Virus record (IMG/VR): IMGVR_UViG_3300014205_000177 | Span: 32,001-96,000 of that record | Reading direction: 5' to 3' (one strand) | DNA length: 64,000 nucleotides | Origin: a virus | Lineage: Duplodnaviria; Caudoviricetes | Notes under the pieces: model-generated | What the model was told of the DNA's origin: nothing | Databases searched by the model: none | What the model saw: only the letters and a program-made list of their open reading frames with translations | Position numbers and translations under genes: made by a program | Shown: positions 7,531 through 48,571 of the stretch, in pieces | Layout: every line of letters starts with the position of its first letter | Position numbering within the stretch: the first letter of the stretch is position 1

Positions 7531-7866
7531 ATGATTAAAAATATATGGTTCGCTATAACAGCTTTTCTACAAGCTTCTTGGATAATGTGGCTATTCATAG
7601 CCCTTTTCATATTGTCCTATATAATAGGAAGGTTTGAAATGTCTTTATTTCCTTATAGTAATATAATAATGAATGATTGGATACTTAGACATGTGTTCCG
7701 CATATTGCTCGGTTTTTGGACCTTTGTTTCCTTGTATTTCCTTCATATTATAATTAATTTATTGCTTGCAGCTTCTGTGGATATTTGTAAGAATACGAAA
7801 ACCAACTACACCTATAAAAAATTCAAAGACTTTAAGGAAAGATACAACAAAGGAATAAAAAAATGA
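7531..7866 (+). CDS. membrane protein
   Basis: two hydrophobic segments; SD AAGGAGG. Confidence 0.6.
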   Translation: MIKNIWFAITAFLQASWIMWLFIALFILSYIIGRFEMSLFPYSNIIMNDWILRHVFRILLGFWTFVSLYFLHIIINLLLAASVDICKNTKTNYTYKKFKDFKERYNKGIKK

Positions 7867-12386: not shown

Positions 12387-12831
12387 TTAGAATGGCAATT
12401 TTAACAGATTCGTCAATCATCTGATATATCATAGCTCCAAGCGGATTGCCTTCTTTTTGACAATCATGTCTATCATCTAATTCTGCTGGTAACATTCCAC
12501 ACTTGATTGCATCCAATGTGTAATCTATACTAAAAGCATTCCATATTGCGGCAATTAAATGAGGTTCATCTGTCATTCCACTTTTCCATGCCAACAAATG
12601 TCTATCTAGAGACTCCATATACCTTGATATAGGCTGACCCTTAGCCCAATTCCAACTATCATATTTAAGAGAGCCATTCCCATAATGGAGAGCTAATTTA
12701 ACCAAAACAGATGGCGGAATTAATGCAGGTTTTGGCTTTCCAGCCTGAGTATCTCTTTGAGAACCCGTTTTCATTAATTCTCTAACACCGTGGTCTTTAA
12801 TCTGCCCAAATACTTTGTTATTTTTATCCAT
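12367..12831 (-). CDS. dATP/dGTP diphosphohydrolase N-terminal domain protein (DUF5664-like)
   Basis: KPKPALIP, GSLKYDSWNWAKG, SLDRHL, HLIAAIWN pattern. Confidence 0.78.
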   Translation of the reverse strand: MDKNNKVFGQIKDHGVRELMKTGSQRDTQAGKPKPALIPPSVLVKLALHYGNGSLKYDSWNWAKGQPISRYMESLDRHLLAWKSGMTDEPHLIAAIWNAFSIDYTLDAIKCGMLPAELDDRHDCQKEGNPLGAMIYQMIDESVKIAILNGKNKD

Positions 12832-16170: not shown

Positions 16171-16209
16171 TGCTCCTATGTTGTTCTGTTATATAATAGG
16201 AGCAACAGT
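16166..16209 (-). promoter_or_regulatory. RBS-sequestering hairpin upstream of the endonuclease
   Basis: perfect 10-bp inverted repeat TTGCTCCTAT/ATAGGAGCAA (extendable to 14 bp with G-U pairs) covering AGGAG. Confidence 0.75.
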
Positions 16210-16215
16210 TGATGA

Positions 16216-33546: not shown

Positions 33547-35886
33547 TTATATTGAACTTAACATTTTCATGTCTTTAATTAAAAACGTTCCATCTTTATA
33601 TCTACCAGTAAATAAATATATTTTATTATTATTAAGATTATTTTTTAAAGCATCATATACATCTGGAAAAAGAATAGCATCCATATTTTGTCTTTTATCA
33701 TAAATATCTAAGAAAGCCATAGTTCTTCCATCGTTTTTACTATTTAATTTACTAATAGAATGTAGCTTAATTTCACTAACCATAGCCACTATCTTTAAAT
33801 CACTATCTGATGGGAAAAATCCGTCAATCATATCAAGTATATCTGTATTGGTTTCTTCTTCTATTATTTTTTTGAATGGCTCTGTAGGGTCTGCTGTAAC
33901 ATAATAATTACAAAGGACAAACTCTTCTCCAAGCATTTCTTCAAGAGTTCTTTTTTCTCCACTATATTCAAAATCTCTTTCTTCTTGTGCAATTTCTGAA
34001 ATACTGTATTCAACTCTTAATTTAACCCCAGAGGCTTTTCTTTTTTGTTGGTCTTTATATTTTACTATTTTCTCTTTTACAAATTCATATTTTGCTAATA
34101 AAATATCTCTGTGCTCTCCCATGAAATCAAAAACCCCAACATTAATCATATTCCTCATAACATCAGCACTTAATACCCCCATATCTGAGTTATACAAAAA
34201 TTCAGTAAAACTTTTTAAATATTCTCTATTTTTTATTAATTCTTTTACTGTTGGAGGAGTAACATTTTTTATAAAAGATAGTCCAAATTCTACAGTTTCA
34301 TCATCTCTTATTTCAAAATAAGCACCACTTGTTAAAGCACTAGGAGGAATTAGTTTTACACCAAGTGTTTTAATTTCATTAATATATGTACCTATTTTTT
34401 CTTTTTCATCTTCTCCATTTATTAATTCACACATAAATTCAGTTGGGAAATGAGCCTTAAACCACGCTGCTTGAAAAGCAATTTTACCATAAGCTACGCT
34501 ATGAGATTTATTGAAAGAATATTTCTGGGCTGTTTCAATTTGTGAAAATATTTCTTCTGTAACACTGTCAGGTCTGCCAAGAGACTTTGACTTTTCATAA
34601 AATAGAGTTTTTGCTTCTGCCATTTTTTCAGGAATTTTCTTGCCAATAGCTTTCCTAAGATTATCAGCTTCTGTCATATTAAATCCAGCATAGTCTTTAG
34701 CAATTTGCATTGCAGTTTCCTGATACAATACAGTATTAAGAGTTTCTTTCATTGAATGCTCTAAAGATGGATGTAAATATTCTATCGGAGATTCACCCTT
34801 TTTGCGCTTAATATAAAGTTCAGTTACACCTGCATGAAGAGTACCAGGTCTAATAAGTGCAGTAAGAGCAAATACATCTTCAAAACAATTGACTTTCATA
34901 CTCTTACACATATTTTGAACATATTTACGTTCTAACTGAAACACTCCTGTAGTTTCTCCTCTTGCAAAAAGTGCTAATGTTCTTTTATCATCCATTTTTA
35001 TATCTACTTCTGCATTTATTTTAATTCCACGTCTTTCATATATCCTATCCATAACCCTTTTCATAATATCAAGAGTATTTAGTCCAAGAACATCTACTTT
35101 TAAAAATCCACCATCTTCCATGTCATACATATCCCATTGAGTAATAGATGAGAATTTATCGGTTTTTGGAGATTTAAATAATGGCATATAATCTGTAATT
35201 GGTTTAGGCGTAATTACAATACCAGAAGCATGTACTCCTGTTGATTTTGATTTACCTGCTAAATCTCTAGCTATATTAAATATCTCAGGATATTTTTTAG
35301 CTTCTTCTTGTAATTCAGGAGAATCTGCAATAGCATCTTCAAAATCTATATCAGCAGATGCTGGAAATTTTTTAGCTATTCTATCTGCAACTTTAGCATG
35401 GTCTGGAATCTGTAAAGCCATAGCTATATTTCTAATTATTGCACGAGACCACATTTTACCAAATGTTATAATGTTAGCAACTCTATCGTTCCCATATTTT
35501 TCTTGTAAGTGAGTAATAACTTCGTCTCTTCTATCTTTACTAATGTCCATATCAACATCAGGCATACTTATACGGCTAGGATTAAGAAAACGTTCAAAAT
35601 ACAAACCATATTTAATAGGGTCAATAGTTGTAATTCCTACAGCATAAGCAATTAGCGAACCGCAAGCACTTCCACGACCTGGGCCTACTGGAATATTATT
35701 ATCTCTACAAAAATCAAGAATGTCTGCAATAATAAGAAAATAATCAACAAATCCCATTTTACTGACTACTTCTAACTCAAATTTTGCTCTATCGAAATAT
35801 TCTTTAGTTTCTGGAATATTTTTTTCTTTCCATCCTTTTTTCATTTTCCAACGAAGAAAGTCTAAATTATTGAATTGTCTGGACAT
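33547..35886 (-). CDS. dnaE: DNA polymerase III alpha catalytic fragment (palm, thumb, fingers, HhH, OB; no PHP)
   Basis: GPGRGSACGS, FERFLNPSR, PDVDMD, GVHASG, KVDVLGL, GVFQLE, RPG, FNKSHS. Confidence 0.93.
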   Translation of the reverse strand: MSRQFNNLDFLRWKMKKGWKEKNIPETKEYFDRAKFELEVVSKMGFVDYFLIIADILDFCRDNNIPVGPGRGSACGSLIAYAVGITTIDPIKYGLYFERFLNPSRISMPDVDMDISKDRRDEVITHLQEKYGNDRVANIITFGKMWSRAIIRNIAMALQIPDHAKVADRIAKKFPASADIDFEDAIADSPELQEEAKKYPEIFNIARDLAGKSKSTGVHASGIVITPKPITDYMPLFKSPKTDKFSSITQWDMYDMEDGGFLKVDVLGLNTLDIMKRVMDRIYERRGIKINAEVDIKMDDKRTLALFARGETTGVFQLERKYVQNMCKSMKVNCFEDVFALTALIRPGTLHAGVTELYIKRKKGESPIEYLHPSLEHSMKETLNTVLYQETAMQIAKDYAGFNMTEADNLRKAIGKKIPEKMAEAKTLFYEKSKSLGRPDSVTEEIFSQIETAQKYSFNKSHSVAYGKIAFQAAWFKAHFPTEFMCELINGEDEKEKIGTYINEIKTLGVKLIPPSALTSGAYFEIRDDETVEFGLSFIKNVTPPTVKELIKNREYLKSFTEFLYNSDMGVLSADVMRNMINVGVFDFMGEHRDILLAKYEFVKEKIVKYKDQQKRKASGVKLRVEYSISEIAQEERDFEYSGEKRTLEEMLGEEFVLCNYYVTADPTEPFKKIIEEETNTDILDMIDGFFPSDSDLKIVAMVSEIKLHSISKLNSKNDGRTMAFLDIYDKRQNMDAILFPDVYDALKNNLNNNKIYLFTGRYKDGTFLIKDMKMLSSI

Positions 35887-38267
35887 TTTTTGTCGCCTTC
35901 CATTATTGGTTTTAATTTCATTCTTGAATAATCTACAAGCGGAGTAGAAAGAGGATTTTTAATATCTACATATTTCTTTTTTATGCCACTATTAGGTTTC
36001 CAATAACTTTTAGAAATACTATCCATAATAGCACTAGCTTCTTCAAATGGCATATCTATACATTTAGATACAATACCCATTTTTGCTAAAAAGAAAAGTT
36101 GCTTAGGAGTACACAATCCTTTTTCACGCCTCTTTATAATAGCATCAACTATCCTGTTTGCAAATCCTTTGTTCATTTTTTTATCCATAAAAATTCCAAC
36201 TTTTGTTAGAAACTCTATTTGCTTTTCACTAATAGGTTGAAATTCCCAATGAAATATAGGTTCATAATTTAATAATGAATCATTTTTAGACAAAAATGCA
36301 AATGTTTTAAAATTCTTTAAATTCTTTTTAAATAAATCAACTTGCGCAATTTTTCTAGCCTCTTCCATTTTAGCTTGAAAAAGAATACAATCAATAATAT
36401 AATGTAAGTCAACTAAATTATAACTATTATTACAATTAGAAATGAGAAAATCACGCATTGCATTAGCTACAGCTTCGTTTTCTGCAATTAGTTTAGATGG
36501 ATGAAATATCTCTTTATTTGATTTCCATATTAAATCAAATAATAATAAGTTTTCTTTACCATTCATCAACCTTGTTCCTCTTCCCATTGCTTGTTTATAA
36601 AAATTAAAAGATTGAGTTGGTCTTAAATTTACAATACAATCAACTGATGGCTCATCCCAGCCCTCATTAAGAAGCAAACTACAAGTTAAAACTTTAATTT
36701 TATTATTAGAAAATGCTTCTAGTTTTTCTTTTCTATCCTTATCTTTACCTGAAATATGAGTAACGTTAAAACCACAAGTAGACATTGCTTTTGCAACTTC
36801 TATAGCTCCATCAATTCTAGGTGTAAATACCACTATTTTTCTATTTGGAGTGTGTTTCATTAAATATTTTGATACAGCTGAAAAATAAGGAGAAATAGCA
36901 TCTTCAAGTTCCCCAACTGAAAAATCTCCAGAAGAGTTTTTAACTTTTGAAATATCTACAGATATATTTGCAGTACGTGCTATTATATTAGACAACCAAC
37001 CATCTTTAATGGCATCTGGAAGTTCATATTCAAATGCTTTTATTTCAAATACTTCGCTTAATTTTTTCTGGTCAGCACGGTCTGGAGTTGCTGTAACACC
37101 TAATAATTTAGATTCAGAAAAATGATTAACTATACGCATATATGTATCTGAAACAATATGATGTGCCTCATCAACTATTATTAAATCAAAAAAATCTTTA
37201 GGATACCTATTAAGCCTTTTTTCTATACATAAAGAATCTTTACTTGCAAAAATTAATTGATGATTTAAATCACCAATAGAACTTTCTTTCTCTAAACTAA
37301 AATCAATACCAGAATCAATTTTTAAAAACTTTTCTATTGCTTGATTTATTAATTCTTCTCTATGAGCAATTATTAATACTTTTCCACCATCTTTTATAAT
37401 ATCAGAAGCTATGGAGTTAAATACTATAGTCTTACCACAATTATGAGTAATTATATTACCTTCCATTAAATATCTTCTATCACCACTTACATGAAATCCA
37501 TAACACGTTCCTACTGCTTCTTTTTCTATAGATTTTATAATTCTAAGAAAAGGTTTTTCTCTAAAACCCTTTATTATTAACCCTGCATCGCAAATGACAC
37601 CATGATTTAAAAATACCGAATCGCACAGTCTGCCTAAATCTTTTCTTATATTAACATTCTTTTTTGGAAAAAAACAAGAAGGATTTCCTTTGTTATTTTT
37701 TAAATGAACCATAAAACCTTTGATAAATTCAATTCTATCTTCGAAAGACATTCTAAAATACTCTTCTTTAATATCCATATCTTTTCTTGCTTTTATACCT
37801 AACATATAAGGTTCAAGGAGTTTATTTTTATAAGGATTCCCAACTCTCAAAATAGGAGCCATTATCATTTTTATATGGTTATTTAAAAGATACTTTGAAT
37901 AAAAACTCATATGCCTAATTGGTACATCTTTTATTACGTCTTTATTGTTACTAGTATCAATAATTGAAAATAAATGATTTCCACCAAGAAGAAATTCGTT
38001 TCTATCTCTTGTAGATTTAACTCTATATATATCATCTTCACTTACAATTACTTCTAATACTGTCCTTGGTGTAGAATCTGCCCCCATTAATTGGTCTCCA
38101 GCCTTGATGTCTTCTACTTTAACTAAATGACCAGTATATTTTAAAACTCTTTGTCCTTTTGCATGACATCCCGTTGGTAAAACTAATAAAACTTTTTTAA
38201 ACCCACTTAACCAAGCTTCTTTTATTGATGATATTGCTTCTTTTTGATAAGGTCTCAAATTTATCAT
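35862..38267 (-). CDS. SF2 DEAH helicase with an intein in Walker A
   Basis: LRPYQ, LPTG/CGKT, DEAHH, TATPDR, EGWD, QAMGRGTR. Confidence 0.92.
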   Translation of the reverse strand: MINLRPYQKEAISSIKEAWLSGFKKVLLVLPTGCHAKGQRVLKYTGHLVKVEDIKAGDQLMGADSTPRTVLEVIVSEDDIYRVKSTRDRNEFLLGGNHLFSIIDTSNNKDVIKDVPIRHMSFYSKYLLNNHIKMIMAPILRVGNPYKNKLLEPYMLGIKARKDMDIKEEYFRMSFEDRIEFIKGFMVHLKNNKGNPSCFFPKKNVNIRKDLGRLCDSVFLNHGVICDAGLIIKGFREKPFLRIIKSIEKEAVGTCYGFHVSGDRRYLMEGNIITHNCGKTIVFNSIASDIIKDGGKVLIIAHREELINQAIEKFLKIDSGIDFSLEKESSIGDLNHQLIFASKDSLCIEKRLNRYPKDFFDLIIVDEAHHIVSDTYMRIVNHFSESKLLGVTATPDRADQKKLSEVFEIKAFEYELPDAIKDGWLSNIIARTANISVDISKVKNSSGDFSVGELEDAISPYFSAVSKYLMKHTPNRKIVVFTPRIDGAIEVAKAMSTCGFNVTHISGKDKDRKEKLEAFSNNKIKVLTCSLLLNEGWDEPSVDCIVNLRPTQSFNFYKQAMGRGTRLMNGKENLLLFDLIWKSNKEIFHPSKLIAENEAVANAMRDFLISNCNNSYNLVDLHYIIDCILFQAKMEEARKIAQVDLFKKNLKNFKTFAFLSKNDSLLNYEPIFHWEFQPISEKQIEFLTKVGIFMDKKMNKGFANRIVDAIIKRREKGLCTPKQLFFLAKMGIVSKCIDMPFEEASAIMDSISKSYWKPNSGIKKKYVDIKNPLSTPLVDYSRMKLKPIMEGDKKCPDNSII
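37440..38168 (-). mobile_element. intein (243 aa) with degenerate endonuclease
   Basis: CHAKGQRVL start, GGNH, CYGFHV...ITHN/C end; removal restores PTG-CGKT. Confidence 0.9.
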
Positions 38268-38827
38268 TTAAAAATCCTTGTTTCTAAAATATTTTTCCCT
38301 ACATTATACTTTAATAATTTTTCCAAAAGAAATAAAGAACTTCTAGCATCACCAAGAGCATCGTGATTACCATATTCTATATTAAAATATTCACACAATG
38401 TTGAAAGTTTCATATCATCAACATCTACTTTTGCTAAAGATGCCATAGTACAGGTATCTATGAATCTAACTGTTCCGAGTGATTTTCCACAAAAATTAAT
38501 TCTCTTATTGATAATAGGGAGGTCACTTTTTCTTATATTATGACCAACAATAATAGCCCCTGAAAAAAAAGATAATATCTTTTCGTGTCTTTCTTCAAAA
38601 CTTTCTTCTCCTAATCTTCTATCATCTGATATTTTATGAGTTTTTAATGCGTAATATGTACTCTTTCCGCCTCCAAACATCCTAGAATATTCATTTATTT
38701 TACCAGATAAAAATTCTACTATTCCAAGTTGTATTATCCTATTATTATCTCCAGATTCACCTGTTGTCTCTATATCAACAGCTATTAATCTCTCAGTGGG
38801 AAATTTTTCAATTATTTGTTTAAACAT
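38264..38827 (-). CDS. DEDDh 3'-5' exonuclease (DnaQ/epsilon-like)
   Basis: DIETTG, GHN...D, IDT, HDALGD. Confidence 0.88.
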   Translation of the reverse strand: MFKQIIEKFPTERLIAVDIETTGESGDNNRIIQLGIVEFLSGKINEYSRMFGGGKSTYYALKTHKISDDRRLGEESFEERHEKILSFFSGAIIVGHNIRKSDLPIINKRINFCGKSLGTVRFIDTCTMASLAKVDVDDMKLSTLCEYFNIEYGNHDALGDARSSLFLLEKLLKYNVGKNILETRIFK

Positions 38828-39315
38828 TTATTAACCTTTCCGCAAGGTTTAAACTCTCCACAAATTCCATTTCTAAATTCACACATTGGACACATTAAAC
38901 ATGCCAACTCTGGGTCAACTTCTGAAATTTTAGACTTTAATTCATCAAAAAACTCACGAGTATAAATCTCGGCTTTAGAACACATTCTTTTATGAGACCA
39001 GTCAATAATATGTTGAGCATTGCACATTATAAAAAAATTACGAGGAGCTAGACGACCATGAACTACAGCAGAACCTATATCAGGTCTACCGCTTTGAACT
39101 AGGAATAATGCTCCATTTTTATCATGAGTTCTCATTTGCATTACTACGCAGTATGGAATATCAGTACAATAGATAGCAAACATTTGGGTTCTGATTGGAG
39201 AATGACCGCTTTTATACCACTTACTCAATGAAGCTTTGGATTTAACTCCGAAAGAATGTTCCATACAACGTTCTAATAATCCTCTGTCTGTTATCTTTTC
39301 TATATTAATTTCCAT
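38812..39315 (-). CDS. short ThyX-like flavin-dependent thymidylate synthase homologue
   Basis: GHSPIR, QMRTH, QSGR, NAQ...KRMCSKA, PMCEFRNGICGEFKPCG; ThyX motif is divergent. Confidence 0.65.
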   Translation of the reverse strand: MEINIEKITDRGLLERCMEHSFGVKSKASLSKWYKSGHSPIRTQMFAIYCTDIPYCVVMQMRTHDKNGALFLVQSGRPDIGSAVVHGRLAPRNFFIMCNAQHIIDWSHKRMCSKAEIYTREFFDELKSKISEVDPELACLMCPMCEFRNGICGEFKPCGKVNKCLNK

Positions 39316-39500
39316 TATTTGTTATCCTTAGTTATTTTTTCATATTCTAATTTATTGATATATACATTTATCCTAGATAAATCCTTTAGGCAAACTCCAC
39401 CAGAGCTGTCTTCTCCAAGGTGTTTGCACATGACACCCTCTAAATGCCCCCATTGTTCTCCTCTTTTAAAACATTTTTCCTTGCATCCACACTTCTTCAT
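39315..39500 (-). CDS. small Cys-rich protein
   Basis: ORF packing. Confidence 0.45.
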   Translation of the reverse strand: MKKCGCKEKCFKRGEQWGHLEGVMCKHLGEDSSGGVCLKDLSRINVYINKLEYEKITKDNK

Positions 39501-39504
39501 TTTA

Positions 39505-41316
39505 TTATCCTTTTAGCTTAAATCCTTCGTTTACATCTTTTATAAAATCATTATAATCTTTTTCTTTTGAGATATCAAAAGCTGGAAACTTATAACCCTC
39601 AAAATTAAGTTTAAATTCTATTCTGTTAGCTATCTCAACTGTCATATCTGCCATTTCTGGAGTTATATAATTCCTAATCATTTGTTCTCTTGTTTTCATA
39701 AATAAACCAGCTGTTTCAAAACCTTCCATTTTACCACCAGTAGCTATTTTTAAAAGAATATTCTGTAACTTATGGTCTCCGTCATTCAAATAATGGCAGT
39801 CATTTGTTACTACACTTTTAACATTATATTTATTAGCTAAAGATATAAATTCAGGAACAATTTTATCATAATCTGGAAAATCAATACACATTACTTCATT
39901 ATAAAACCTGTCTCCAAAATTATCAACAAAAAACTTTATGTTTTCCTCTGCCTTTTTAGGGTCATAGCCTTCTTGGGAAAAATGAAAAGATACTGGACTT
40001 TTATAACATCCAGATAATATTATTAGACCTTCACCATATTTTTGTAAATTTTTTCTATCTGTTCTTGGTTTATAATAAAAACCCTCTCTATTTGCATTAG
40101 TTACAATTTGGCATACGTTTTTCCACCCCGTATCGTTCATTACAAGAATTATTATATGATAATTACTTCTTTGCTCTTTATCTGTAGCATCATCTACATA
40201 ATAAGCTTCTATTCCATGTATTGGCTTAATCCCATTTTTAATACATTCCTTTTGAAACTTATATAAACCAAACATATTGCCATGGTCTGTCAGTGCAAGG
40301 GCTTTAAAACCCATTTCTTTTGCTTTTTTTGCTAATTTATCAACATCAGCTACTCCATCTAACAAACTGTGTGAAGAGTGAACGTGAAGATGAACAAAAC
40401 TATCACTCGGAATAATTATTTTTTCCTCTGTTTTCTTTTCCTGCTTTTTAACCTCAATAACAGCATCTTTCCTAACTTCTTCTTTTTTCGGATATATTTC
40501 TTTAATATTTTTAAGTTTAAAAATAAAACTTCTAGGAAGGTATACATTGGAAGGAACAAATTCTCCACTAAACAAGTTCCCAATTTCCTGAGTAGAATAT
40601 CCAGCAAGTTTACATCCTATTTCACAGACGAGAAATCTATTTTCTGGATGAGAAACAGCATATTTTAAGAAATCTATAATTTCAGACTTGATTTCTTCTA
40701 GGGTTGATGAACGCTCTACAGCCCAATCCTTTTTTGTTACAATAGCATAAGACCTACCCTGTATTCCTCTTGGATTATTCCATTTAGCACCAAAAAACTG
40801 TCTTGCAAATAACGCCGCACCTTTGCCGTGTTTACCGCCAGCATTAGAACCAAAAACAAAAATATCATTATTCTGAGCCAATGAAGCAACTAAAAAATTT
40901 CTAGTTCTATTTTGTATTCCAGGAGAAATACTTTCTCTATTACCTGCAACATTAAGAACTTTTATATTGTTATTAATAAGCCATTCTAAAAACTGATTTT
41001 TTGATTTTACTAGTATATACGGTTTATTATATTTTTCACATACATTAATTGTATATCTAGTTCCAACAGATTTTTCATTAGTTGCAAATATTGCAGTACC
41101 ATCTGATTCTATAACATTTTTTAATGTTCTTTCTTTATAATCACCATCTATCTCTACCAAATTAAATCTATCTCTTAATTCTATACATTGACCATTCTCT
41201 GTTTTAAATTCACTAGGTGCAAAACCACCAACATCTAATCCAAGCAATTCTCCTGCTTCAAGACCTCCTCTGTCACCACCAGATTGACCACCAGAAATAA
41301 TTTTATCAATAATCAT
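39505..41316 (-). CDS. fusion of SLOG (MoCo-carrier-like), Macro-like and DnaE PHP domains
   Basis: IISGGQSGGDRGGL...RTLKNVIESDGT...LNVAGNRES; IFVFGSNAGGKHGKGAA...IGCKLAG; FVHLHVHSSHSLLDG...TDHGN...GIEAY...YYKPR...TNDCHY. Confidence 0.85.
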   Translation of the reverse strand: MIIDKIISGGQSGGDRGGLEAGELLGLDVGGFAPSEFKTENGQCIELRDRFNLVEIDGDYKERTLKNVIESDGTAIFATNEKSVGTRYTINVCEKYNKPYILVKSKNQFLEWLINNNIKVLNVAGNRESISPGIQNRTRNFLVASLAQNNDIFVFGSNAGGKHGKGAALFARQFFGAKWNNPRGIQGRSYAIVTKKDWAVERSSTLEEIKSEIIDFLKYAVSHPENRFLVCEIGCKLAGYSTQEIGNLFSGEFVPSNVYLPRSFIFKLKNIKEIYPKKEEVRKDAVIEVKKQEKKTEEKIIIPSDSFVHLHVHSSHSLLDGVADVDKLAKKAKEMGFKALALTDHGNMFGLYKFQKECIKNGIKPIHGIEAYYVDDATDKEQRSNYHIIILVMNDTGWKNVCQIVTNANREGFYYKPRTDRKNLQKYGEGLIILSGCYKSPVSFHFSQEGYDPKKAEENIKFFVDNFGDRFYNEVMCIDFPDYDKIVPEFISLANKYNVKSVVTNDCHYLNDGDHKLQNILLKIATGGKMEGFETAGLFMKTREQMIRNYITPEMADMTVEIANRIEFKLNFEGYKFPAFDISKEKDYNDFIKDVNEGFKLKG

Positions 41317-41370: not shown

Positions 41371-41754
41371 TTAAGAAGAAATATTTTTATAAGAACATAC
41401 ATGACATCTTAGGTTTAAAACTTTTTCTGTTTGTAAATGTAACATAGTATTTTTTACTGCATCTATTAAATTTGCAGAATCAAGACATTTTTTACATTGC
41501 AAAATACTTTCTTTCCTAATTTCTTTTAATTCTGAAATTGGTATTTTAAACATTTCATCTTCTGGAACATAAGATATACCTGAATTTATAGCATTTTTTA
41601 ATAAATTTTCAGCGTTAACTAAATCTTTTTCATAATCTATAAATAATGTTTCTGAACCTTTATTTTTAGAAGTATTAGCAGATAGAAAAAAGCTACTTCT
41701 AAGAGCCAAAAGTTCTTGACTTATTGCATAAAGAACTTCATATTGAGGAGACAT
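41371..41754 (-). CDS. hypothetical protein
   Basis: ORF overlap packing. Confidence 0.5.
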   Translation of the reverse strand: MSPQYEVLYAISQELLALRSSFFLSANTSKNKGSETLFIDYEKDLVNAENLLKNAINSGISYVPEDEMFKIPISELKEIRKESILQCKKCLDSANLIDAVKNTMLHLQTEKVLNLRCHVCSYKNISS

Positions 41755-42316
41755 TTAAAGTATTCCTTTCAAACGGTAAGCGTGTTTCACCTTCAGAAAG
41801 ATTGTATATTTTAAAATCTTTTTCTTCAGAAAGTTTTTTAACCAAGTTTAATTCTCTAATTAACCATTCATCTCCCATTCTTAGTGGGTCTGCTGTACCT
41901 TCCCCATAAAAATGATTAGTATCTTTATTATACATTAAATCACACCCTATAATATAAATGTTAAACATTACACCATGGATATAACATAAATTGATTATAT
42001 GATAAATAGAATTTAATAACATAGTACCTGAACCATCTTCGCATTTATACCAATACGGTTTATTTAAAAAAGAAGTAGTAATTCCTCCCCTAAGACATCT
42101 TAAACTTTGTCTAAAATCATCATGACTTGGAAGAACCTTCCCTGTACAAAAAAAATCGTTAGGAATAAGCCAATAATCTGTTCTTTCTTTAGTTAATGAC
42201 CAAGAATTATTCATTGCACAAACATATATGTTTTTATCAATATTTTTACTATTATTATTCCACCAATCTTTAATGTATGGAGCAGAACCAACTATTAAAA
42301 AATTTTTCATAAACAC
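41738..42316 (-). CDS. sialyltransferase/Maf-like (GT29/DUF115-type) Rossmann protein
   Basis: FLIVGSAP, VCAMNN, SGT, IYIIGCD, HFYG pattern. Confidence 0.55.
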   Translation of the reverse strand: MFMKNFLIVGSAPYIKDWWNNNSKNIDKNIYVCAMNNSWSLTKERTDYWLIPNDFFCTGKVLPSHDDFRQSLRCLRGGITTSFLNKPYWYKCEDGSGTMLLNSIYHIINLCYIHGVMFNIYIIGCDLMYNKDTNHFYGEGTADPLRMGDEWLIRELNLVKKLSEEKDFKIYNLSEGETRLPFERNTLNVSSI

Positions 42317-42331
42317 CCCCTTATAATTATA

Positions 42332-42910
42332 TTAAACTGCTTTAGATTCCATTATCACAGTAAAATGTTCTTCTTTTATTTTTTCCCATGATTTTTGTTC
42401 TTCTTCTTTTGAAAGAAATCTAAAATATTTATCAACTGGAACTAATACAGGACCGGCTCCATAGTCAAGATATGACCTTGAACTAAGATATAGAAATTTA
42501 GTCATTTTAGATAAGCTCTTTAAATATTCTTCTAAAACGTCTACTGGTATATGTTGAAAAACTAATGAAGCAACTACTATATCAAACTTTCTTTGTTTTA
42601 AATCATCCCATTGATTAACAGTAAAAAGTTCTAAATTTTTTGTTTCAGAATATCTTTTATCTTTTTTTAATAATTCTATCATATTGGGAAAATCATAACC
42701 TACTACATTGTTTGCTATATTTGTAAGCGCAAAAGTATTTCTACCCATCCCACAACCAAAATCAAGAACATTTTTATGTTCAACAGTAGAAACTAACTTT
42801 AACATTTCGGTTGAAGCAATTAAATCTTCCCGTGTCTTAGCTACACTAATAATTAAGTGTGGAGCAGTTTCTTCGTTAGCTTTTCCCCAATCGTTTTTAT
42901 AAATTCTCAT
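42332..42910 (-). CDS. class I SAM-dependent methyltransferase
   Basis: VLDFGCGMGR, FDIVVASLVFQH. Confidence 0.88.
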   Translation of the reverse strand: MRIYKNDWGKANEETAPHLIISVAKTREDLIASTEMLKLVSTVEHKNVLDFGCGMGRNTFALTNIANNVVGYDFPNMIELLKKDKRYSETKNLELFTVNQWDDLKQRKFDIVVASLVFQHIPVDVLEEYLKSLSKMTKFLYLSSRSYLDYGAGPVLVPVDKYFRFLSKEEEQKSWEKIKEEHFTVIMESKAV

Positions 42911-43526
42911 TTTTATTTCCTTTTATTGCTACAAAAAATATTGCATTTCCTCTTGAAAACATTACCATTTCAGTATGCGTAAGTTTATATCCTATGCCAT
43001 TAAATAGTTCTTCTAAGTCTTTAACTTCAAACTCCCTATAGTGCCACTTGTCAACATGCTGTGCTGACTTTTCAGGAACAGTGCCAATGATAAGACGAGG
43101 GTTTAATAATTTAATATTCTGCATTACAACTTCAGGATTAGGAAAGTGCTCAAGTATTTCACAGGCAACTACAACAGTTTTAGTATTATATATGTTTGGC
43201 TCAAAGCAGTCTTCTTTTCCTATGTCTACAATAAAAAATCCTATATCTGATACACGATTATCTTGTGCAAACTCTATTGTTTCTATGGAATCATCTATTC
43301 CAACTACAGCACAACCGCAAAGTTCATATAGTAATTCACTTCCAAATCCAGAACCGCATCCAATATCATAAACTCTATCATCTTTATTTATATACTTAGC
43401 CGCCATCCTATAACGTGTAGATGGTAATCCTAAGAATTCATCCTTTTTTATAATTCTTTCACCCGAAGTGAATGACTTACTTCTATTTCTATTTTCTTCG
43501 TTCATTTTCCTCCTAACATATCTCAT
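42897..43526 (-). CDS. class I SAM-dependent methyltransferase
   Basis: RY...VYDIGCGSGFG, GID, EILEH, GTVP, HYREF. Confidence 0.88.
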   Translation of the reverse strand: MRYVRRKMNEENRNRSKSFTSGERIIKKDEFLGLPSTRYRMAAKYINKDDRVYDIGCGSGFGSELLYELCGCAVVGIDDSIETIEFAQDNRVSDIGFFIVDIGKEDCFEPNIYNTKTVVVACEILEHFPNPEVVMQNIKLLNPRLIIGTVPEKSAQHVDKWHYREFEVKDLEELFNGIGYKLTHTEMVMFSRGNAIFFVAIKGNKNENL

Positions 43527-44628
43527 TTATTATTTTTGTCATTTTTTCACATGCTATTTTCCAAGTCCATTTATTAATCATGTCTCTTCTTGCATTAATT
43601 CCTTTCATGTTCTTATCTGACCTATTATTATAAACAAATCTCATAGTTTCAATTAAATGGTCTTTATCTATCTCTGCCCAATTTTGACCAGCATAATGAG
43701 GAAATTTAGCACATTGTTCATCTGAAACTGGAACTATTTTACAATCCACTAAGTACCCATTATCTTTATTTATAAATTCAGTATGTGAACTCCAGTTTGT
43801 TGCTATACATGGTACTCCACACCCCATGCTTTCACTAAAACATAGCCCCCATCCTTCTCCTCTTGTAGGAGAAACATAACAGTCTATACTGTTATAAAAT
43901 CCAGCCATATCATCGGCATTAATCATTTGCGGCATCAACATTATTTCTGAATCTTTATTTCCAACAAAATTACGTATTTCTTTTATTTTTTCTTTAACTG
44001 TTTCTGTAAATTTATTTGAATATTCATAATGAGCATATATTTTTAACAATAAAGAAACATCTTTTCTACCTTTAAAAGCCCTAAGATAACATTCAATTAA
44101 AGCATTTGGATTTTTTCTTGGAGTCCAATCAAAATTAGAACCAAAAACAAATTTATTTGGTATTTTTTTTATTAATGGTTTTTTTTCAGGGCTAAACCTA
44201 TCAGTGTCAACTCCGTGAGGAATTACAAAAATAGGGTTTCTTATTCCTGAATTATAAAACGTATTTTTATTAAATTCACTATATGTAAAAACATAATCCA
44301 TAGCCCTTATTGGCATTACCCATGATTTTGGGATGCCATCTGTTTCAAAAGTTGTCATACAAGAATGGAAGCTCTTACCTTTATTAATTATTTGATAATT
44401 TTCTGGTGTTACATTAAAAATTACAATATCAAAATCTTCACTATCCTTATTCATTAATGGATTCAATTTATTAAAAAATTCTTTACCTAAACCAACAGTA
44501 CCACCCTTATAAAATTTTAAAGATTTTAATTGTAGATTAACACCATTCATATTATATACATAATTTCTTGATGCTTCACCATATCCGCTTGGGTCGTGAA
44601 AAGACCCTACCCATAATACGTTTTTCAT
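43513..44628 (-). CDS. GT-B (GT4-like) glycosyltransferase
   Basis: SGYG, IPHGVD, RKN, EGWGLCFSESMGCGVP. Confidence 0.9.
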   Translation of the reverse strand: MKNVLWVGSFHDPSGYGEASRNYVYNMNGVNLQLKSLKFYKGGTVGLGKEFFNKLNPLMNKDSEDFDIVIFNVTPENYQIINKGKSFHSCMTTFETDGIPKSWVMPIRAMDYVFTYSEFNKNTFYNSGIRNPIFVIPHGVDTDRFSPEKKPLIKKIPNKFVFGSNFDWTPRKNPNALIECYLRAFKGRKDVSLLLKIYAHYEYSNKFTETVKEKIKEIRNFVGNKDSEIMLMPQMINADDMAGFYNSIDCYVSPTRGEGWGLCFSESMGCGVPCIATNWSSHTEFINKDNGYLVDCKIVPVSDEQCAKFPHYAGQNWAEIDKDHLIETMRFVYNNRSDKNMKGINARRDMINKWTWKIACEKMTKIINEIC

Positions 44629-45989
44629 GCTTTCACCAATTCAATCTTTTCTTCATTTTTGTTTTTATTAATCATACGAGATATTAAAACATCCCACTGT
44701 GGGATAATTTTATCCCAAGAATATTTTTCTATTTGCATTCTACCGGCAATACTTAACATTTTTCTTGCTTTATCACCTGTTATTTCTGGCTTTTTAGATT
44801 CTGGATAAGCTTGTTTTAAATAACTACCCCATTTTTCATAAAATACACTATTATCATTATAATATAATTTATCTAATCTCATAGCATAATCATAAACATC
44901 AACAATGGCTCTTTCTATATTAGAATTTGTTTCTGTAAAATAATCTGAAACACTAATTAATTCTGAACATGGAGCACAAAAGTCAATATGACCTGAATAA
45001 TTAGTGACAACGGTAGGAGTTCCACAAGCCATAGCTTCTGCAATAGGGAGACCAAATCCTTCTCCAGTTGTTGGGAGTGTAAATATATCGAACAGGTTAT
45101 AGAGTTCGCACAATGTTTCTGAAGTTACACCTGCACCTACGTTCATTTTTGGTGGAATTATTACATTACCGAATAACTTGTAAGTATTTATTAGTTCTGG
45201 TATATTCCAACCAAAGTCTTCTCCTCCAGGAGTATGAAGGTAAAGGCGAGCTTCTTTTTTACCATCACGAACTTCAATTTTTTCGCTACCACAAAATTCA
45301 CATTTTTTTTCAGAAAATGACATTTCTCCACATTCACAACAAATACAATAAGGTCTACAAAACAAAGAAAAAGCTTGCATTAATTTAGGGATATTTTTTC
45401 TTGGTTGATTTCTACATACAGTCCCGATTACAAACAAATCTTTAGACTTGTATTTTATACGTAGTGATTCTTTATTACAAATAGGTTTAAATATATCTAT
45501 ATCAACACCATGTGGTATTGCAACTATTTTATTAAGATTTATCCCTAATTTTATAATTTCATTAAACCCAAAATTACCATATGCAACAACCATATCAATG
45601 TTTTCAAGTAAATTTTTCCATCTTATTGAAAATGGAACACCATCAACAGGGACATACGATATTAATTTATAACTATTTCTATAAGGGCTCTTTATCATTG
45701 ACTCTATCATCCATATATCTCCAACTGTCAATACTATTTCTGGCTTATAAACAGATACAACTTCATTAAACGTTATACCAGAATACATATCATCTTTAGT
45801 TGCTTTTGTAGATATAATTTCATAAGGAACCATTTCTTGGTTTTTTTGTCCATGCCAATTAAACCACCCTATTGTCTTTATTTCATACTTTTCCATATTA
45901 AAAAGACCAATAGCCATTTCTTTAACAACTCTTCCGAATCCTGTATGAATCAAACTTGAATCACCTACAATTAATATTTTTGGTTTCAT
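44625..45989 (-). CDS. GT-B (GT4-like) glycosyltransferase with inserted Zn ribbon
   Basis: TGFG, IPHGVD, RNQPRKN, CCECG...CEFCGS insert, EGFGLPIAEAMACG. Confidence 0.9.
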   Translation of the reverse strand: MKPKILIVGDSSLIHTGFGRVVKEMAIGLFNMEKYEIKTIGWFNWHGQKNQEMVPYEIISTKATKDDMYSGITFNEVVSVYKPEIVLTVGDIWMIESMIKSPYRNSYKLISYVPVDGVPFSIRWKNLLENIDMVVAYGNFGFNEIIKLGINLNKIVAIPHGVDIDIFKPICNKESLRIKYKSKDLFVIGTVCRNQPRKNIPKLMQAFSLFCRPYCICCECGEMSFSEKKCEFCGSEKIEVRDGKKEARLYLHTPGGEDFGWNIPELINTYKLFGNVIIPPKMNVGAGVTSETLCELYNLFDIFTLPTTGEGFGLPIAEAMACGTPTVVTNYSGHIDFCAPCSELISVSDYFTETNSNIERAIVDVYDYAMRLDKLYYNDNSVFYEKWGSYLKQAYPESKKPEITGDKARKMLSIAGRMQIEKYSWDKIIPQWDVLISRMINKNKNEEKIELVKA

Positions 45990-47152
45990 TATTTCCCCTT
46001 TTTTATTATTGGATATGGATTACCATCTTCCTCTATGGTTATTTCTTCAAAGTCTTTCATTGCAACTTTATTTTTAGATATTATTTTTTCAATATCTCCA
46101 ACTCTTATCATTGACAAGGCTTCTTCAATAAGATTGTGTTTTAAGATAAGTTCTTTACCTGCATTTTTAGAGATAAGCCTAGTATTTTTTCTTGATGTTA
46201 ATTTTGCCACTTTACCATCTTCTGTTTTAATTTCTCTATCGCTATGACTATTAATCAAATCAACTACCCATGAACTTAAATTTTTCTTTTCTTTATCAAT
46301 ACATGTTGCTATAGTAGACATAGAATCATAAATTCTTATTATTTCAGATGGAGATAAATCTTTTACCTCGTCAATTGTTTTCACCTTTGTATTAATTACT
46401 CCAACAGCAGAACCAATCATGGCTACAATAGTTATAAAATTAGCATATTCATAACATGTAGAACGGCACTCACAATTCCAACAAAATGAATTTAATACTG
46501 GTTTTGGATTATTATTTTTTAATATCGAATGAAATAAATGGTCAAAATATTCTAAATACTCAGGGATATCAGCCCTATAAACATATATATTTTTTTGCCT
46601 ATTTAAACGTAAATATTTATAATTAAATATCACCGTATCAAAATTATCATACTTTGGGTTAGTAAAAAAATATGCTGAATATAACTTTGTTTGATGGGAG
46701 TTTTCAAGTTCTTCTGAAGTGGGCATAAAAGCACCTGTTTTATAATCTACTATTCTTAAAGTATGATTATCTATAAAATCTACTCTATCAATGAACCCCC
46801 TTGCTGAAGCTCCTGATTCAAGATATAATTTAAACCCTATTTCTGTCCCTATAACATCTAAAGAATCTCTAGGTTCTAGAGAAACTTGATTAAAAAACAT
46901 TTCTTTAGCATCTTTAAAATATTGTTGGTTAGCACATTCGTTTTCTTTAGAAGCCTTTAAAAAACACTCTTCTGGTGTTTCTTTATTACCAACCTTATAA
47001 TATAACTCTAATGAATTATGTGTTAATAATCCAGAATCTATTTGAGGGGTTGAACCACCTCTATCTGAACTCAATTCATATCTATTATAATATCTATAAG
47101 AACATTGTTCATACAAAGTTCCACCTGAAGCACTTAAAAATTCACATTTCAT
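45989..47152 (-). CDS. PD-(D/E)XK exonuclease, Cas4/RecB-like with probable Fe-S cluster
   Basis: N-terminal Cys, GFIDRVD, IVDYKTG, QTKLY, CWNCECRSTC. Confidence 0.85.
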   Translation of the reverse strand: MKCEFLSASGGTLYEQCSYRYYNRYELSSDRGGSTPQIDSGLLTHNSLELYYKVGNKETPEECFLKASKENECANQQYFKDAKEMFFNQVSLEPRDSLDVIGTEIGFKLYLESGASARGFIDRVDFIDNHTLRIVDYKTGAFMPTSEELENSHQTKLYSAYFFTNPKYDNFDTVIFNYKYLRLNRQKNIYVYRADIPEYLEYFDHLFHSILKNNNPKPVLNSFCWNCECRSTCYEYANFITIVAMIGSAVGVINTKVKTIDEVKDLSPSEIIRIYDSMSTIATCIDKEKKNLSSWVVDLINSHSDREIKTEDGKVAKLTSRKNTRLISKNAGKELILKHNLIEEALSMIRVGDIEKIISKNKVAMKDFEEITIEEDGNPYPIIKKGK

Positions 47153-47805
47153 TACATTCTCCTTAATCCACTAATAGTTATATTAATTAATTCAAAAAGT
47201 AATTTATTATCAATTTTTTTTATATTAGTTTTTGTTATTTTGTTTTTTTTGCGTAATTTAGGTGAAATAAGAGAATATTTTTGATTTTCATTTAAAGAAG
47301 ATATATCAACTCCCATTATTGATTTAATAGATTTAGCCAACATATAAGAGTCTGCTATATTATCATCAATAAATCTTTTTCCTGTTAATTCCTGAACCTT
47401 TAGTAAATAACTAGTATCTTTTTTTACAGAACCATCTCCAAAAATCATTAATTTCCATGTTGACGGAGGTATTATATACATATATATGTTTCTATCAGAC
47501 CATATACTATTTTTATTACAATAAAACAACATGTCTATTACACCTCCCAATTCACCCAATTCAAATATAGAATTTGTATCTAAAAGACTACCATAGGAAT
47601 AACCTTCTCTTACAACTATAATCTCTTCCCCTTGAGACGTATGTTCTTCAACCACATTAGCAAGAAATTTACATATATAATCGAGTCTTTCTATTCCTCT
47701 AAGCTCTGCGGTTTTGATTACGTTAGAATAGAAAATCTCTTCTTCTTTCAAAACAGAAACTCCTGTGCTAGTAAGAGATTGGTCAATTCCTATGATAGTT
47801 TCCAT
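47152..47805 (-). CDS. RuvC-like Holliday junction resolvase
   Basis: IIGIDQSLTSTG, REGYS, LGELGG, PSTWK, DDNIADS. Confidence 0.82.
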   Translation of the reverse strand: METIIGIDQSLTSTGVSVLKEEEIFYSNVIKTAELRGIERLDYICKFLANVVEEHTSQGEEIIVVREGYSYGSLLDTNSIFELGELGGVIDMLFYCNKNSIWSDRNIYMYIIPPSTWKLMIFGDGSVKKDTSYLLKVQELTGKRFIDDNIADSYMLAKSIKSIMGVDISSLNENQKYSLISPKLRKKNKITKTNIKKIDNKLLFELINITISGLRRM

Positions 47806-47843
47806 ATTATACTCCTTTTATATTGTTTTAAAACAACTCTTCC

Positions 47844-48506
47844 TTAAAAAGGAATATCATCACCGAATTCTTCTTCAGCATTAAAATCTCTATTATCAAT
47901 TTCACCTTTAGTCATTCTTGTATCTTGACGAGGACCTCTTTCGTAATCTACACTGGGGATTTGTTGTTCTCTTGAATCATTTCTGCTTTGATATTGTCTG
48001 TTTTGATAACCAGGTCTACGTCCAGAATCATCTCTTACAGTTTCAGTTCTTTGTCTTTCAATAGGTATATCTCCATTTCTTTCATTAAAATTTCCTCTAT
48101 CATCTCTACGCTTATTATCACTTCCTCCTCCAGATTGACGTGCATTTTCAATAGAAGTTGCTACTAACTCTACTTCACTGAATCCTGTTTTTTCGTTTCT
48201 TCTTGTTACAAGATAACCTTTAATTTTAACCAACATATGAGCTCTCATAAAATCAGCAGTTGAATCAGCCAATTCATTCCACCCACTTACTCTGAAAAAC
48301 GTAGCATTTTCTCCGTTTTTTACTAATACTGAGAATGTTATCTTTCTATTCCCAGTGTTAAATTCTTTGTATTCAAAACCTTCATTGTTATTTTTGTTTT
48401 TAGTTACAACACCTTGAATCCAAAAACGATTTATAAAATCATTTTTACCGTTTTGCTCACTTCCATTACCTCTTTGCTCTTGTTGAGTTCTTTGTTCTCT
48501 TTGCAT
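47844..48506 (-). CDS. ssb: single-stranded DNA-binding protein
   Basis: OB fold (FFRVSGWNELA, VKIKGYL), disordered linker, DDIPF acidic tip. Confidence 0.88.
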   Translation of the reverse strand: MQREQRTQQEQRGNGSEQNGKNDFINRFWIQGVVTKNKNNNEGFEYKEFNTGNRKITFSVLVKNGENATFFRVSGWNELADSTADFMRAHMLVKIKGYLVTRRNEKTGFSEVELVATSIENARQSGGGSDNKRRDDRGNFNERNGDIPIERQRTETVRDDSGRRPGYQNRQYQSRNDSREQQIPSVDYERGPRQDTRMTKGEIDNRDFNAEEEFGDDIPF

Positions 48507-48543
48507 TTTTAGTCTCCGTTGTTATTATTTTATTAACTTCTAT

Positions 48544-48571
48544 ACAATAGCATTTTTTTTGTATTTTTCAA
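48544..48571 (-). promoter_or_regulatory. sigma70-like extended -10 promoter for the ssb-ruvC-exo-GT operon
   Basis: TTGAAA-N13-TGC-TATTGT. Confidence 0.7.

Follow-up and report, generated by a model that had tools for sequence, protein, structure and literature searches.

A glycosyltransferase, methyltransferase and Maf/Cst-I-fold cassette in the replication module of an uncultured large phage, and the question of its acceptor

What do sugar-transferring enzymes act on when their genes lie amid the replication and recombination genes of a phage? The question is raised by a minus-strand cassette at positions 41371-45989 of a 64,000-nucleotide stretch (the window, to which bare positions refer) of a tailed-phage genome, IMG/VR record IMGVR_UViG_3300014205_000177, in which two GT4 glycosyltransferases (GTs), two S-adenosylmethionine (SAM) methyltransferases and a small protein of the Maf/Cst-I fold directly follow the genes of an SSB-like protein, a resolvase and an exonuclease. 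An earlier note on this DNA had proposed that the cassette assembles a methylated oligosaccharide stepwise on phage DNA as protection against restriction or CRISPR, and had named glycosylation of virion proteins as the alternative. The assembly part of that proposal is supported by the two GT4 enzymes, the two non-DNA methyltransferases, the Maf/Cst-fold transferase and the domain fusions found in its family, while the DNA acceptor is not supported. We read the cassette as a soluble cytoplasmic glycan-assembly toolkit whose target is most likely the phage's own virion proteins, and give this reading a probability of roughly 0.55.

Enzymes of the cassette

The cassette and the small open reading frame (ORF) that ends it comprise the following genes (lengths in amino acids, aa).

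44625..45989, minus strand: GTa, a GT4 (GT-B) glycosyltransferase of 454 aa (PF00534 E 1.5e-13, 51.1 bits against a cut-off of 26.4; phrog_2170 E 6.5e-37)
43513..44628, minus strand: GTb, a GT4 (GT-B) glycosyltransferase of 371 aa (phrog_2170 E 1.9e-39; PF13692; PF00534; PF20706)
42897..43526, minus strand: MT209, a class-I SAM methyltransferase of 209 aa (PF13847, PF13489 and PF08241 above cut-off)
42332..42910, minus strand: MT192, a class-I SAM methyltransferase of 192 aa (PF13649, PF08242 and PF08241 above cut-off)
41738..42316, minus strand: orf192, a compact protein of the Maf/Cst-I fold (MptE-like) of 192 aa (AF2 model with pLDDT 93.6 from a 60-sequence alignment)
41371..41754, minus strand: orf127, 127 aa with two C-terminal CxxC pairs, overlapping orf192 by 17 nt and absent from the list of the earlier note

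Both glycosyltransferases pass the threshold of Glycos_transf_1 (PF00534), GTb with 41.9 bits against 26.4 and with a further 35.3 bits against 26 for PF20706, and they are paralogues with 30% identity over 236 aa (E 2e-21). Each carries in its C-terminal domain an E-x7-E motif, EGFGLPIAE in GTa and EGWGLCFSE in GTb, which we take to be of the GT4 type; E258 of GTb is invariant in both GTb alignments, and E266 is invariant in the first (A1) and nearly so in the second (A4). In the alignment of the pair GTa differs by a CxxC-x10-CxxC insert (Zn-ribbon) at about residues 212-235, which GTb does not have. A Cys-rich insert at this position occurs only here and in three related phage loci (L013, L014 and L017), and is missing from the eight more distant GTa-like proteins aligned and from gp89 of Flavobacterium phage immuto.

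GTb is, as judged by comparison with its relatives, the conserved core of the cassette. It has 132 homologues at E<=1e-10, the best of which (about 35, 35-62% identical) are found mostly on contigs of 145-193 kb. The matches of its AF2 model (pLDDT 95.2) to GT4 structures have E values of 1e-13 to 1e-20, and considering the best 50 of at least 500 Foldseek matches among structures in PDB, the Protein Data Bank, and in the viral models of BFVD, the top PDB match is a glycosyltransferase of chlorovirus NY2A (3oy2_A, E 2.8e-20, TM 0.72, 18% identity), followed by the ordinary GT4 enzymes GlgM, PimB', HepE, BshA, MshA, TarM, GtfA and SdgB, while in BFVD the top matches come from giant viruses, archaeal filamentous viruses and Arthrobacter phages and are likewise glycosyltransferases.

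The two methyltransferases had been described as not of the DNA type, and this holds for both: a regular-expression search of MT209 and MT192 finds no [DNS]PP[YFW], PCQ or ENV motif, and their Pfam matches are to generic class-I families with no DNA-methylase family among them. MT209 is probably a sugar O-methyltransferase, and MT192 has weak, sub-threshold matches to TIGR04371, 'putative sugar O-methyltransferase' (33.5 bits against 44), and to TIGR03587, 'pseudaminic acid biosynthesis-associated methylase'. Genuine DNA methylases are encoded elsewhere in the phage, namely a C5-cytosine enzyme (PF00145, C2:27606-28802, where C2 is the contig that holds the window) and a D12 Dam-like adenine enzyme (PF02086, window 7863-8588), and these are the only DNA-modifying enzymes recognised in it.

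The relationship of orf192 to sialyltransferases and Maf, suggested by the earlier note, is borne out by its fold. No match was found in Pfam (E<=0.01, and hence none to PF01973), PHROG or NCBIfam, and a Pfam match is likewise missing in five standalone or short members of its family (P0124, P0125, P0128, P0129 and P0131). A 60-member profile gave no more than chance-level matches (E above 1) among PDB sequences. The best structural alignments of the orf192 model (VIA-align) are nevertheless to the Maf flagellin glycosyltransferase (5mu5_A, Z 10.6, root-mean-square deviation (rmsd) 3.5, 157 residues aligned) and to Cst-I (2p56_A, Z 9.2, rmsd 4.1, 162 aligned), ahead of thiamin and HPPK pyrophosphokinases of the same fold class at Z 7-8. 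The fold is thus common to the three over 157-162 residues, although Maf has 632 residues and orf192, with only 192 aa, is a bare core. Foldseek returns no PDB match of orf192 at E<=0.001 and gives 5mu5 a probability of 0.96. Its Atlas structure matches have TM 0.71-0.80 (0.71-0.75 for the PF01973/Maf entries) and include Maf, MptE-like and WaaZ_KDO_III clusters. G8, S9 and D141 are invariant in 60 family members. Taken as a model-based assignment, orf192 is a candidate transferase of CMP-activated ulosonic acid (Kdo or sialic-acid-like).

The family to which orf192 belongs has no Pfam model and comprises 272 representative clusters at E<=1e-3 in a profile search of 1.84 billion representative proteins. 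In 16 of 28 members the domain is fused, according to Pfam, to a GT32-type DXD, GT8, GT2, Caps_synth, nucleotide-sugar transferase, FkbM or class-I methyltransferase domain; one more of the 28 is fused to an endonuclease/exonuclease/phosphatase domain, and one has a weak Stealth match. In the protein P0258 a homologue of MT209 (residues 7-181, E 2.3e-27) is joined to an orf192-like domain (residues 234-402). Because of these fusions and of P0258, we take methyltransferase, Maf-like enzyme and glycosyltransferases to share one glycan-building context. The papers that headed the literature listings on the subject (top 15 and top 12) include none on a phage-encoded Maf-like enzyme or on nonulosonate glycosylation of virions. 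NeuB (C13, 319 bits) and MptE-like genes are present on contigs binned with the phage, which makes these a plausible source of the donor, and the related phages L015 and L016 themselves encode NeuB.

The genes that the earlier note had named exist on the minus strand where it had placed them, and their identities hold by Pfam, PHROG and NCBIfam, or by fold for orf192. Every cassette and neighbouring ORF between 41371 and 48506 is on this strand, and the eight genes of 41371-47805 are as tightly packed, and as often overlapping, as had been described, with gaps of -17 to +15 nt; the co-directional run extends upstream through primase, DnaB and RecA, again with several overlaps. The stretch from GTa to orf192 is in our reading one functional unit. 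Consistent with the earlier observation that membrane segments are lacking, a crude 19-residue hydropathy scan finds no clear membrane helix in the cassette proteins (maxima 0.46-1.72), the maximum of 1.64 in orf192 (residues 107-125) overlapping a beta-strand of its model. The single promoter that had been placed at 48571 is not confirmed: the site (TTGAAA-16-TATTGT, 9 of 12 consensus positions) is not better than chance, 97 promoter-like matches being found in 15.5 kb against 87.8 +/- 8.8 expected from shuffles. The last gene, orf127, has no family match in Pfam, PHROG or NCBIfam, and its Atlas model is poor (pLDDT 0.43) with no informative neighbour.

Head-module homologues and the likely acceptor

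A 3-sequence orf192 alignment found seven viral loci with an orf192 homologue, and in six of the seven this homologue is inside a head module. By PHROG matches, the closest (L101, 46% identical) presents the order terminase, two small ORFs, orf192 homologue, portal, phrog_2170 glycosyltransferase, protease and major head protein; L102 and L105 present terminase, portal, protease, major head protein, orf192 homologue, a radical-SAM-like gene, a small ORF, phrog_2170 glycosyltransferase and head-tail adaptor; and L107 presents portal, orf192 homologue, scaffold, major head protein and a weak sialyltransferase-like gene. Gene order and capsid-protein alignment assign the L102 pattern to L103 and L104, and L106 has a fused form of orf192 beside a DEDDh exonuclease. 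A glycosyltransferase of phrog_2170, the family of GTa and GTb, shares the head module in three of the seven loci. GTb itself has a homologue in a prophage-like locus of a bacterial genome (L169), where the order is scaffold, P22-type coat, GT4, a 90-aa ORF, the GTb homologue, GT1 and Methyltransf_24. As a separate observation on these loci, the major head proteins at L103:6574-7929, L104:5346-6626 and L105:5667-7046 start with a CxxC...CxxC Zn-ribbon-like segment before a coiled N-terminal part, and the L102 major head homologue is without it.

That these enzyme families are repeatedly wired into head operons is, at the level of gene context, the strongest pointer to the acceptor, and the structural neighbours of the GTb and orf192 models point to virus glycosylation enzymes and to the flagellin enzyme Maf. 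Virion-protein glycosylation, the alternative of the earlier note, fits these homologues in or beside head and packaging modules better than DNA does. The glycan system also looks cytoplasmic, and no priming transferase, flippase or exporter appears in the whole-contig Pfam scans at E<=1e-5. A precedent exists in mycobacteriophages, for which glycans on the C-termini of capsid and tail-tube proteins are mentioned in the portion of PMC12619734 that cites Freeman et al. 2023.

We propose that GTb and its Zn-ribbon paralogue GTa would transfer sugars from nucleoside diphosphate (NDP)-sugars by retaining GT4 chemistry, that orf192 would add a ulosonic acid (Kdo or sialic-acid-like) from a CMP-sugar with the donor supplied by the host, and that MT209 and MT192 would O-methylate the sugars, the acceptor being a protein of the head or of another part of the particle that is synthesised in the same cytoplasm. 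The placement in a replication operon would then reflect the timing of expression and modular shuffling and not a role on DNA. Gene content, family and fold assignments, fusions and the synteny seen in relatives are observed here, whereas donors, order of steps and acceptor are what we infer.

Several observations weigh against a virion acceptor. Some 55 kb separate the cassette from the recognisable capsid gene (C2:136725-137606), and it lies amid replication and recombination genes and next to a nuclease; placement of GT genes in a structural module is not seen in this phage, being seen in L015, L016, L101-L105, L107 and L169. The linkage of nuclease, GT and GT recurs in Flavobacterium phage immuto, which has an unrelated replicon. 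The capsid protein has no obvious Ser/Thr-rich extension, the giant proteins of the phage have no extreme Ser/Thr tracts (0.40 in the best 60-aa window), no C-terminal extension is common to the capsid proteins of the head-module loci, and a candidate acceptor protein did not emerge from these comparisons. Bacterial homologues are found in polysaccharide-type clusters, six of the eight examined being GT2-GT4 fusions, so that the GT family is not protein-specific by descent. Furthermore, when the neighbours within six genes of the GT family were counted in 55 viral loci, provided that they belonged to multi-locus clusters, sugar-metabolism or further GT genes were present in 30 loci, replication genes in 13, recognisable virion genes in 12, large LamG-type proteins in 10 and DNA methylases in 4, and virion and replication genes thus flank the family about equally often. 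The context evidence for a virion acceptor is, throughout, guilt by association.

Gene order in related phages and the competing acceptors

The genes that adjoin the cassette are the following.

47844..48506, minus strand: SSB-like OB-fold protein of 220 aa (PF00436 E 3.5e-4; TIGR00621 E 1.8e-4)
47152..47805, minus strand: RuvC-like Holliday junction resolvase of 217 aa (phrog_159 E 3.1e-22; no Pfam match)
45989..47152, minus strand: PD-(D/E)XK (Cas4/RecB-type) exonuclease of 387 aa (PF12705 E 1.1e-20; phrog_69 E 6.2e-24)
39505..41316, minus strand: protein with cpYpsA-SLOG, A1S_2505-type and PHP domains, the N-terminal part of a split Pol III alpha (PF12694 E 3.2e-33; PF02811 E 6.5e-47; NF049995 E 4e-35)

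The SSB-like protein is the weakest of the gene calls, its PF00436 match of 21 bits being under the 26-bit cut-off; its C-terminus reads ...GDDIPF, which we take to be the SSB tail motif, and the positional homologue in L018 matches PF00436 at E 1e-10. It belongs to the replication and recombination backbone and not to the glycan cassette. Orthologues of the RuvC-like gene occupy the same position in L013 and L014. In the sequence of the nuclease a CxxCxCxxxC cysteine cluster can be read. Its orthologues in L013, L014 and L018 immediately precede GTa, as does a PF12705 protein in L017. The SLOG-PHP gene is the downstream border of the cassette and recurs as a fusion, bordering the cassette in L014 and L017 and lying about 1.6 kb downstream of GTb in L019. 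The polymerase block had been said to follow directly and does adjoin, as a split Pol III alpha block at 33547-41316; within it the polymerase core (33547-35886, minus strand) is separated from the SLOG-PHP gene by a 167-aa ORF, a DEDDh exonuclease and a helicase with a Hint/intein segment.

With GTb as a single query no related viral locus was found, and an alignment of 20 GTb homologues was used to fetch 80 viral loci. The six closest, with GTb 40-46% identical, show two layouts. In four (L013, L014, L017 and L019) GTb is in the replication module. L013 and L014 share the order RecA, orf200, DnaB, primase, SSB, RuvC, PD-(D/E)XK, GTa, GTb, with nine cargo genes between GTb and the SLOG-PHP gene in L014 (GT9-like, GT1_2-like, methyltransferase, DegT aminotransferase, B12 radical-SAM, Methyltransf_24 and three unknowns); L017 has nuclease, GTa and GTb followed by SLOG-PHP only; and in L019 GTb is found between primase and the SLOG-PHP gene. 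In the other two (L015 and L016) GTb is away from replication genes, preceded by DegT, radical-SAM and NeuB, to which L016 adds SDR, PIG-L and an NDP-sugar epimerase/dehydratase, and is followed by a methyltransferase, an ERCC4 nuclease, an intein-bearing large terminase and homologues of the head genes of the phage described here. From these six layouts it follows that GTb travels with variable sugar-making cargo and that its address shifts between replication and packaging/head modules. Among the 1710 ORFs of 83 loci there is no homologue of MT209, orf192 or orf127, and the orf192 family is missing from five related phage records under a search that recovered it from its own genome at E 1.5e-68 as a positive control; the three genes are therefore lineage-specific cargo.

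Next to a virion acceptor we consider an acceptor of the host itself, which would be either a glycoconjugate on the cytoplasmic side of the membrane (undecaprenyl-linked intermediates of O-antigen, capsule or S-layer glycan, for example) or a protein like flagellin or pilin. The cassette would on this account alter the cell surface during infection, for example as a superinfection block, or keep progeny off debris; we regard it as unlikely, at a good deal less than even odds. The descent of the enzymes speaks for it. Of the 113 bacterial relatives of GTb (28-37% identity), those in the eight loci examined lie in polysaccharide-type clusters with GT2, GT4, methyltransferases (in five of the eight), GDP-mannose dehydratase, pyruvyl transferase and ABC transporter, and the GT2-GT4 fusions in such clusters lead us to derive the GTb family from glycan-polymer enzymes. 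Lipid-linked or small acceptors are typical of GT4 enzymes, of which PimB', BshA, MshA, TarM and HepE are among the top PDB matches of GTb; flagellin and lipooligosaccharide are the acceptors of Maf and Cst, to which orf192 is related; and annotations in the immuto cluster include a pilin-glycosylation protein and enzymes of the WecE type. However, neither in the cassette nor elsewhere on the contig was a membrane protein, priming phosphoglycosyltransferase, flippase, polymerase or ligase of such a system detected, and the phage looks lytic, the Pfam scans at E<=1e-5 showing neither integrase nor repressor, whereas the phage glycosyltransferases known to convert host surfaces are for the most part encoded by prophages. 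The placement of homologues in head operons would also be hard to reconcile with conversion of the host surface. Among the bacterial relatives themselves, those in L161, L172, L119, L130, L159 and L135 are mostly two-domain GT2-GT4 proteins of 615-826 aa beside methyltransferases, and a Paenibacillus relative is found beside DUF4214 and DUF1796 genes.

The hypermodification of DNA with which the earlier note had led, where a base of the phage DNA would carry a methylated oligosaccharide as a shield from restriction or CRISPR and the PD-(D/E)XK nuclease might degrade unmodified DNA, is less probable again. To our knowledge every known phage DNA glycosylation starts from 5-hydroxymethylcytosine (5hmC) or 5-hydroxymethyluracil (5hmU), bases whose source is a hydroxymethylase of the ThyA family or a dioxygenase of the TET/JBP type. 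PF00303 (ThyA-family) and PF12851 (TET/JBP) gave no match in the whole assembly, the complete phage contig included, in a search that had no positive control for divergent 5mYOX; none in five related phage records, four of them at least 97% complete; and the Pfam scans of 229 of the 230 ORFs of C2 show no hydroxymethylase or TET/JBP match. The only thymidylate synthase in the assembly is ThyX, on contig C34. The hydroxymethylase and TET/JBP search of the genome that the earlier note had called for thus came back empty, as did that of the relatives, and orf192 and GT homologues are found inside head modules of other phages.

What keeps a DNA acceptor under consideration is the location of the cassette, within a replication and recombination operon with tight overlaps, and the recurrence of a nuclease next to the glycosyltransferases: PD-(D/E)XK in L013, L014, L017, L018 and immuto, ERCC4 in L015 and L016, and a PDDEXK_15 nuclease next to a GT in a cluster of four loci. 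DNA is among the substrates of GT-B enzymes: Pyle et al. (bioRxiv 10.1101/2023.12.21.572611) describe 5hmC that carries mono- to trisaccharides and discuss Kdo and heptose as bulkier candidate DNA sugars, and for the DNA of phage YerA41 an oligosaccharide-like addition of about 1 kDa on thymidine is reported. The C5-cytosine methylase of the phage could, if joined by an oxygenase, in principle feed a 5hmC route. This methylase is, however, about 45 kb from the cassette, with six of its neighbour genes lacking a PHROG match. According to Pyle et al. (bioRxiv 10.1101/2023.12.21.572611), complete pathways for DNA hypermodification mostly occur as clusters, and action on DNA is less likely for GT contigs that lack 5mYOX or ThyS. 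Neither T4 beta-glucosyltransferase nor JGT is among the best 50 of at least 500 GTb matches in PDB or BFVD, and MT209 and MT192 are without DNA-methylase motifs. In immuto, with its syntenic cluster of nuclease, GT and GT, liquid chromatography with ultraviolet and mass-spectrometric detection (LC-UV-MS) of the DNA is reported to have given dA, dC, dT and the formylated 7-deazaguanine fdPreQ1 only and no sugar adduct; digestion-based LC-MS can miss DNA adducts.

A DNA glycosylation that starts from neither 5hmC nor 5hmU, placing a ulosonic-acid-containing methylated oligosaccharide on a base, or on a modified base not so far recognised, with the Zn-ribbon GT as DNA-binding subunit and the Cas4-type nuclease sparing modified DNA only, is a slightly longer shot than a DNA acceptor in general. 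If true, it would add a new class to the known DNA hypermodifications, and a DNA chemistry of this kind would matter for the evasion of restriction and could be a source of enzymes. Glycosylation of tRNA or of queuosine, as by GTDC1-type GT4 enzymes, is rejected, since the Pfam lists of the eukaryotic GTb homologues hold PF00534, PF20706, PF13692 and PF13524 only.

Genome setting and closest known systems

The window corresponds to bases 32001-96000 of contig C2, which comes from an assembly of 4.04 Mb in 177 contigs. C2 is 177,804 bp long and has a GC content of 30.4%, the assembly as a whole having 33.3%. Its first 123 bases are identical to its last 123, and because of these identical ends we take the contig for a complete phage genome, either circularly permuted or terminally redundant, that was binned with a bacterium. 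One public DNA sequencing run, possibly the source, contains the stretch in the form of contigs, and no RNA run is listed with it. Simple ORF calling gives 230 genes over 93% of the contig, and 229 of these genes were run through Pfam (17 at E<=0.01 and 212 at E<=1e-5), the one left out being an over-long ORF of 5587 aa on the minus strand at C2:113032-129795. The replication set is of bacterial type, with DnaB, DnaG-type primase, RecA, Rad52, split Pol III alpha and DEDDh exonuclease, and several inteins and homing endonucleases are present. The structural genes are very divergent, and only a large terminase (C2:142120-145149) and the capsid protein (phrog_2522, E 7.8e-17) were recognised. 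Megablast of the 7.2-kb cassette region against 50,697 phage records gave no match, and tblastn of the Pol III alpha core found no cultured phage above 35% identity. The moraphages of PMC12619734 were considered as possible members of this clade; their genomes exceed 200 kb, and no link to the present phage was drawn. The composition of 30-33% GC suggests a host probably outside the actinobacteria.

Other features of the genome are recorded here in their own right. The large terminase gene (1009 aa) contains an intein that includes a LAGLIDADG endonuclease and interrupts it, and its homologues in L015 and L016 are likewise long. ORFs of 2449, 1668, 1298, 1058, 1051 and 1025 aa on C2 have almost no family matches. 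In the early region (C2:12067-17146, L002) a ThiF-family protein, a reverse transcriptase (PF00078 E 9e-20) and a RuvB-like AAA+ protein are encoded close together and may form an anti-defence or retron-like set. The window also holds the N-terminal domain of a MazZ-like dATP/dGTP diphosphohydrolase (12367-12831), the scans giving no adenylosuccinate-synthetase (PurZ-type) Pfam match, and a ribonucleotide reductase in two genes with a 415-aa ORF between them (13803-18021). A dCMP deaminase is found at L007:5872-6342, although by the Pfam scans the phage has no thymidylate synthase of its own. At L003:16699-18879 a 726-aa RtcB ligase is matched in two stretches and may carry an insertion, beside a DUF5131 / 'radical SAM mobile pair protein A'-like gene (L003:15667-16491) and with an RNA ligase nearby.

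If virion proteins are indeed the acceptors, the particles of a whole clade of uncultured phages of 145-195 kb, and of many smaller phages, would bear a coat of glycans that are methylated and possibly sialic-acid-like, made by an enzyme set (a GT4 pair and a bare Maf/Cst-fold transferase) unlike the known mycobacteriophage one, which would bear on phage stability, host range, receptor masking and the recognition of phages by antibodies and lectins. For genome mining, the locus would then caution that a GT cassette inside a replication operon is insufficient to call DNA modification.

The closest known systems are those of actinobacteriophages, in which phage-encoded soluble glycosyltransferases, together with methyltransferases, reportedly glycosylate capsid and tail-tube proteins, a finding said to have been described by Freeman and colleagues in Cell Host Microbe in 2023. 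Glycosyltransferases of Arthrobacter and Streptomyces phages share phrog_2170 with GTa and GTb, although at an identity of 21-26% only, and the present system, known from genes alone, differs in its paralogous GT4 pair (one with a Zn-ribbon), its Maf/Cst-fold enzyme and its placement in a replication module. In chloroviruses, cytoplasmic virus-encoded glycosyltransferases and sugar methyltransferases act on the capsid protein, and the NY2A enzyme 3oy2 is the best solved structural match of GTb; however, it is from a eukaryotic virus, its PDB title names no acceptor, its identity is 18%, and it shares no gene context with GTb. The T4 alpha- and beta-glucosyltransferases and the GT clusters of Pyle et al. 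are likewise phage GT-B enzymes near replication genes, and multi-step glycans built with secondary glycosyltransferases are described on DNA in that work (bioRxiv 10.1101/2023.12.21.572611). Unlike in those systems, no hydroxymethylase or dioxygenase was found here, and non-DNA-type methyltransferases and a Maf-like enzyme are present. Flavobacterium phage immuto presents the same order of PD-(D/E)XK nuclease, GT and GT, followed by further genes for GT, methyltransferase and sugar-nucleotide enzymes; its first GT is 21% identical to GTa over 374 aa (E 2.6e-10) and its second 27% identical to GTb over 306 aa (E 5.4e-20). Unlike the phage described here, immuto has Pol A replication, ThyA, a 7-deazaguanine pathway and its own sugar-nucleotide enzymes. 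What is distinctive of the present locus is that a Maf-like protein and methyltransferases are paired with a conserved GT4 duo, one of them with a Zn-ribbon, and that in a clade of large phages this placement is within the replication module.

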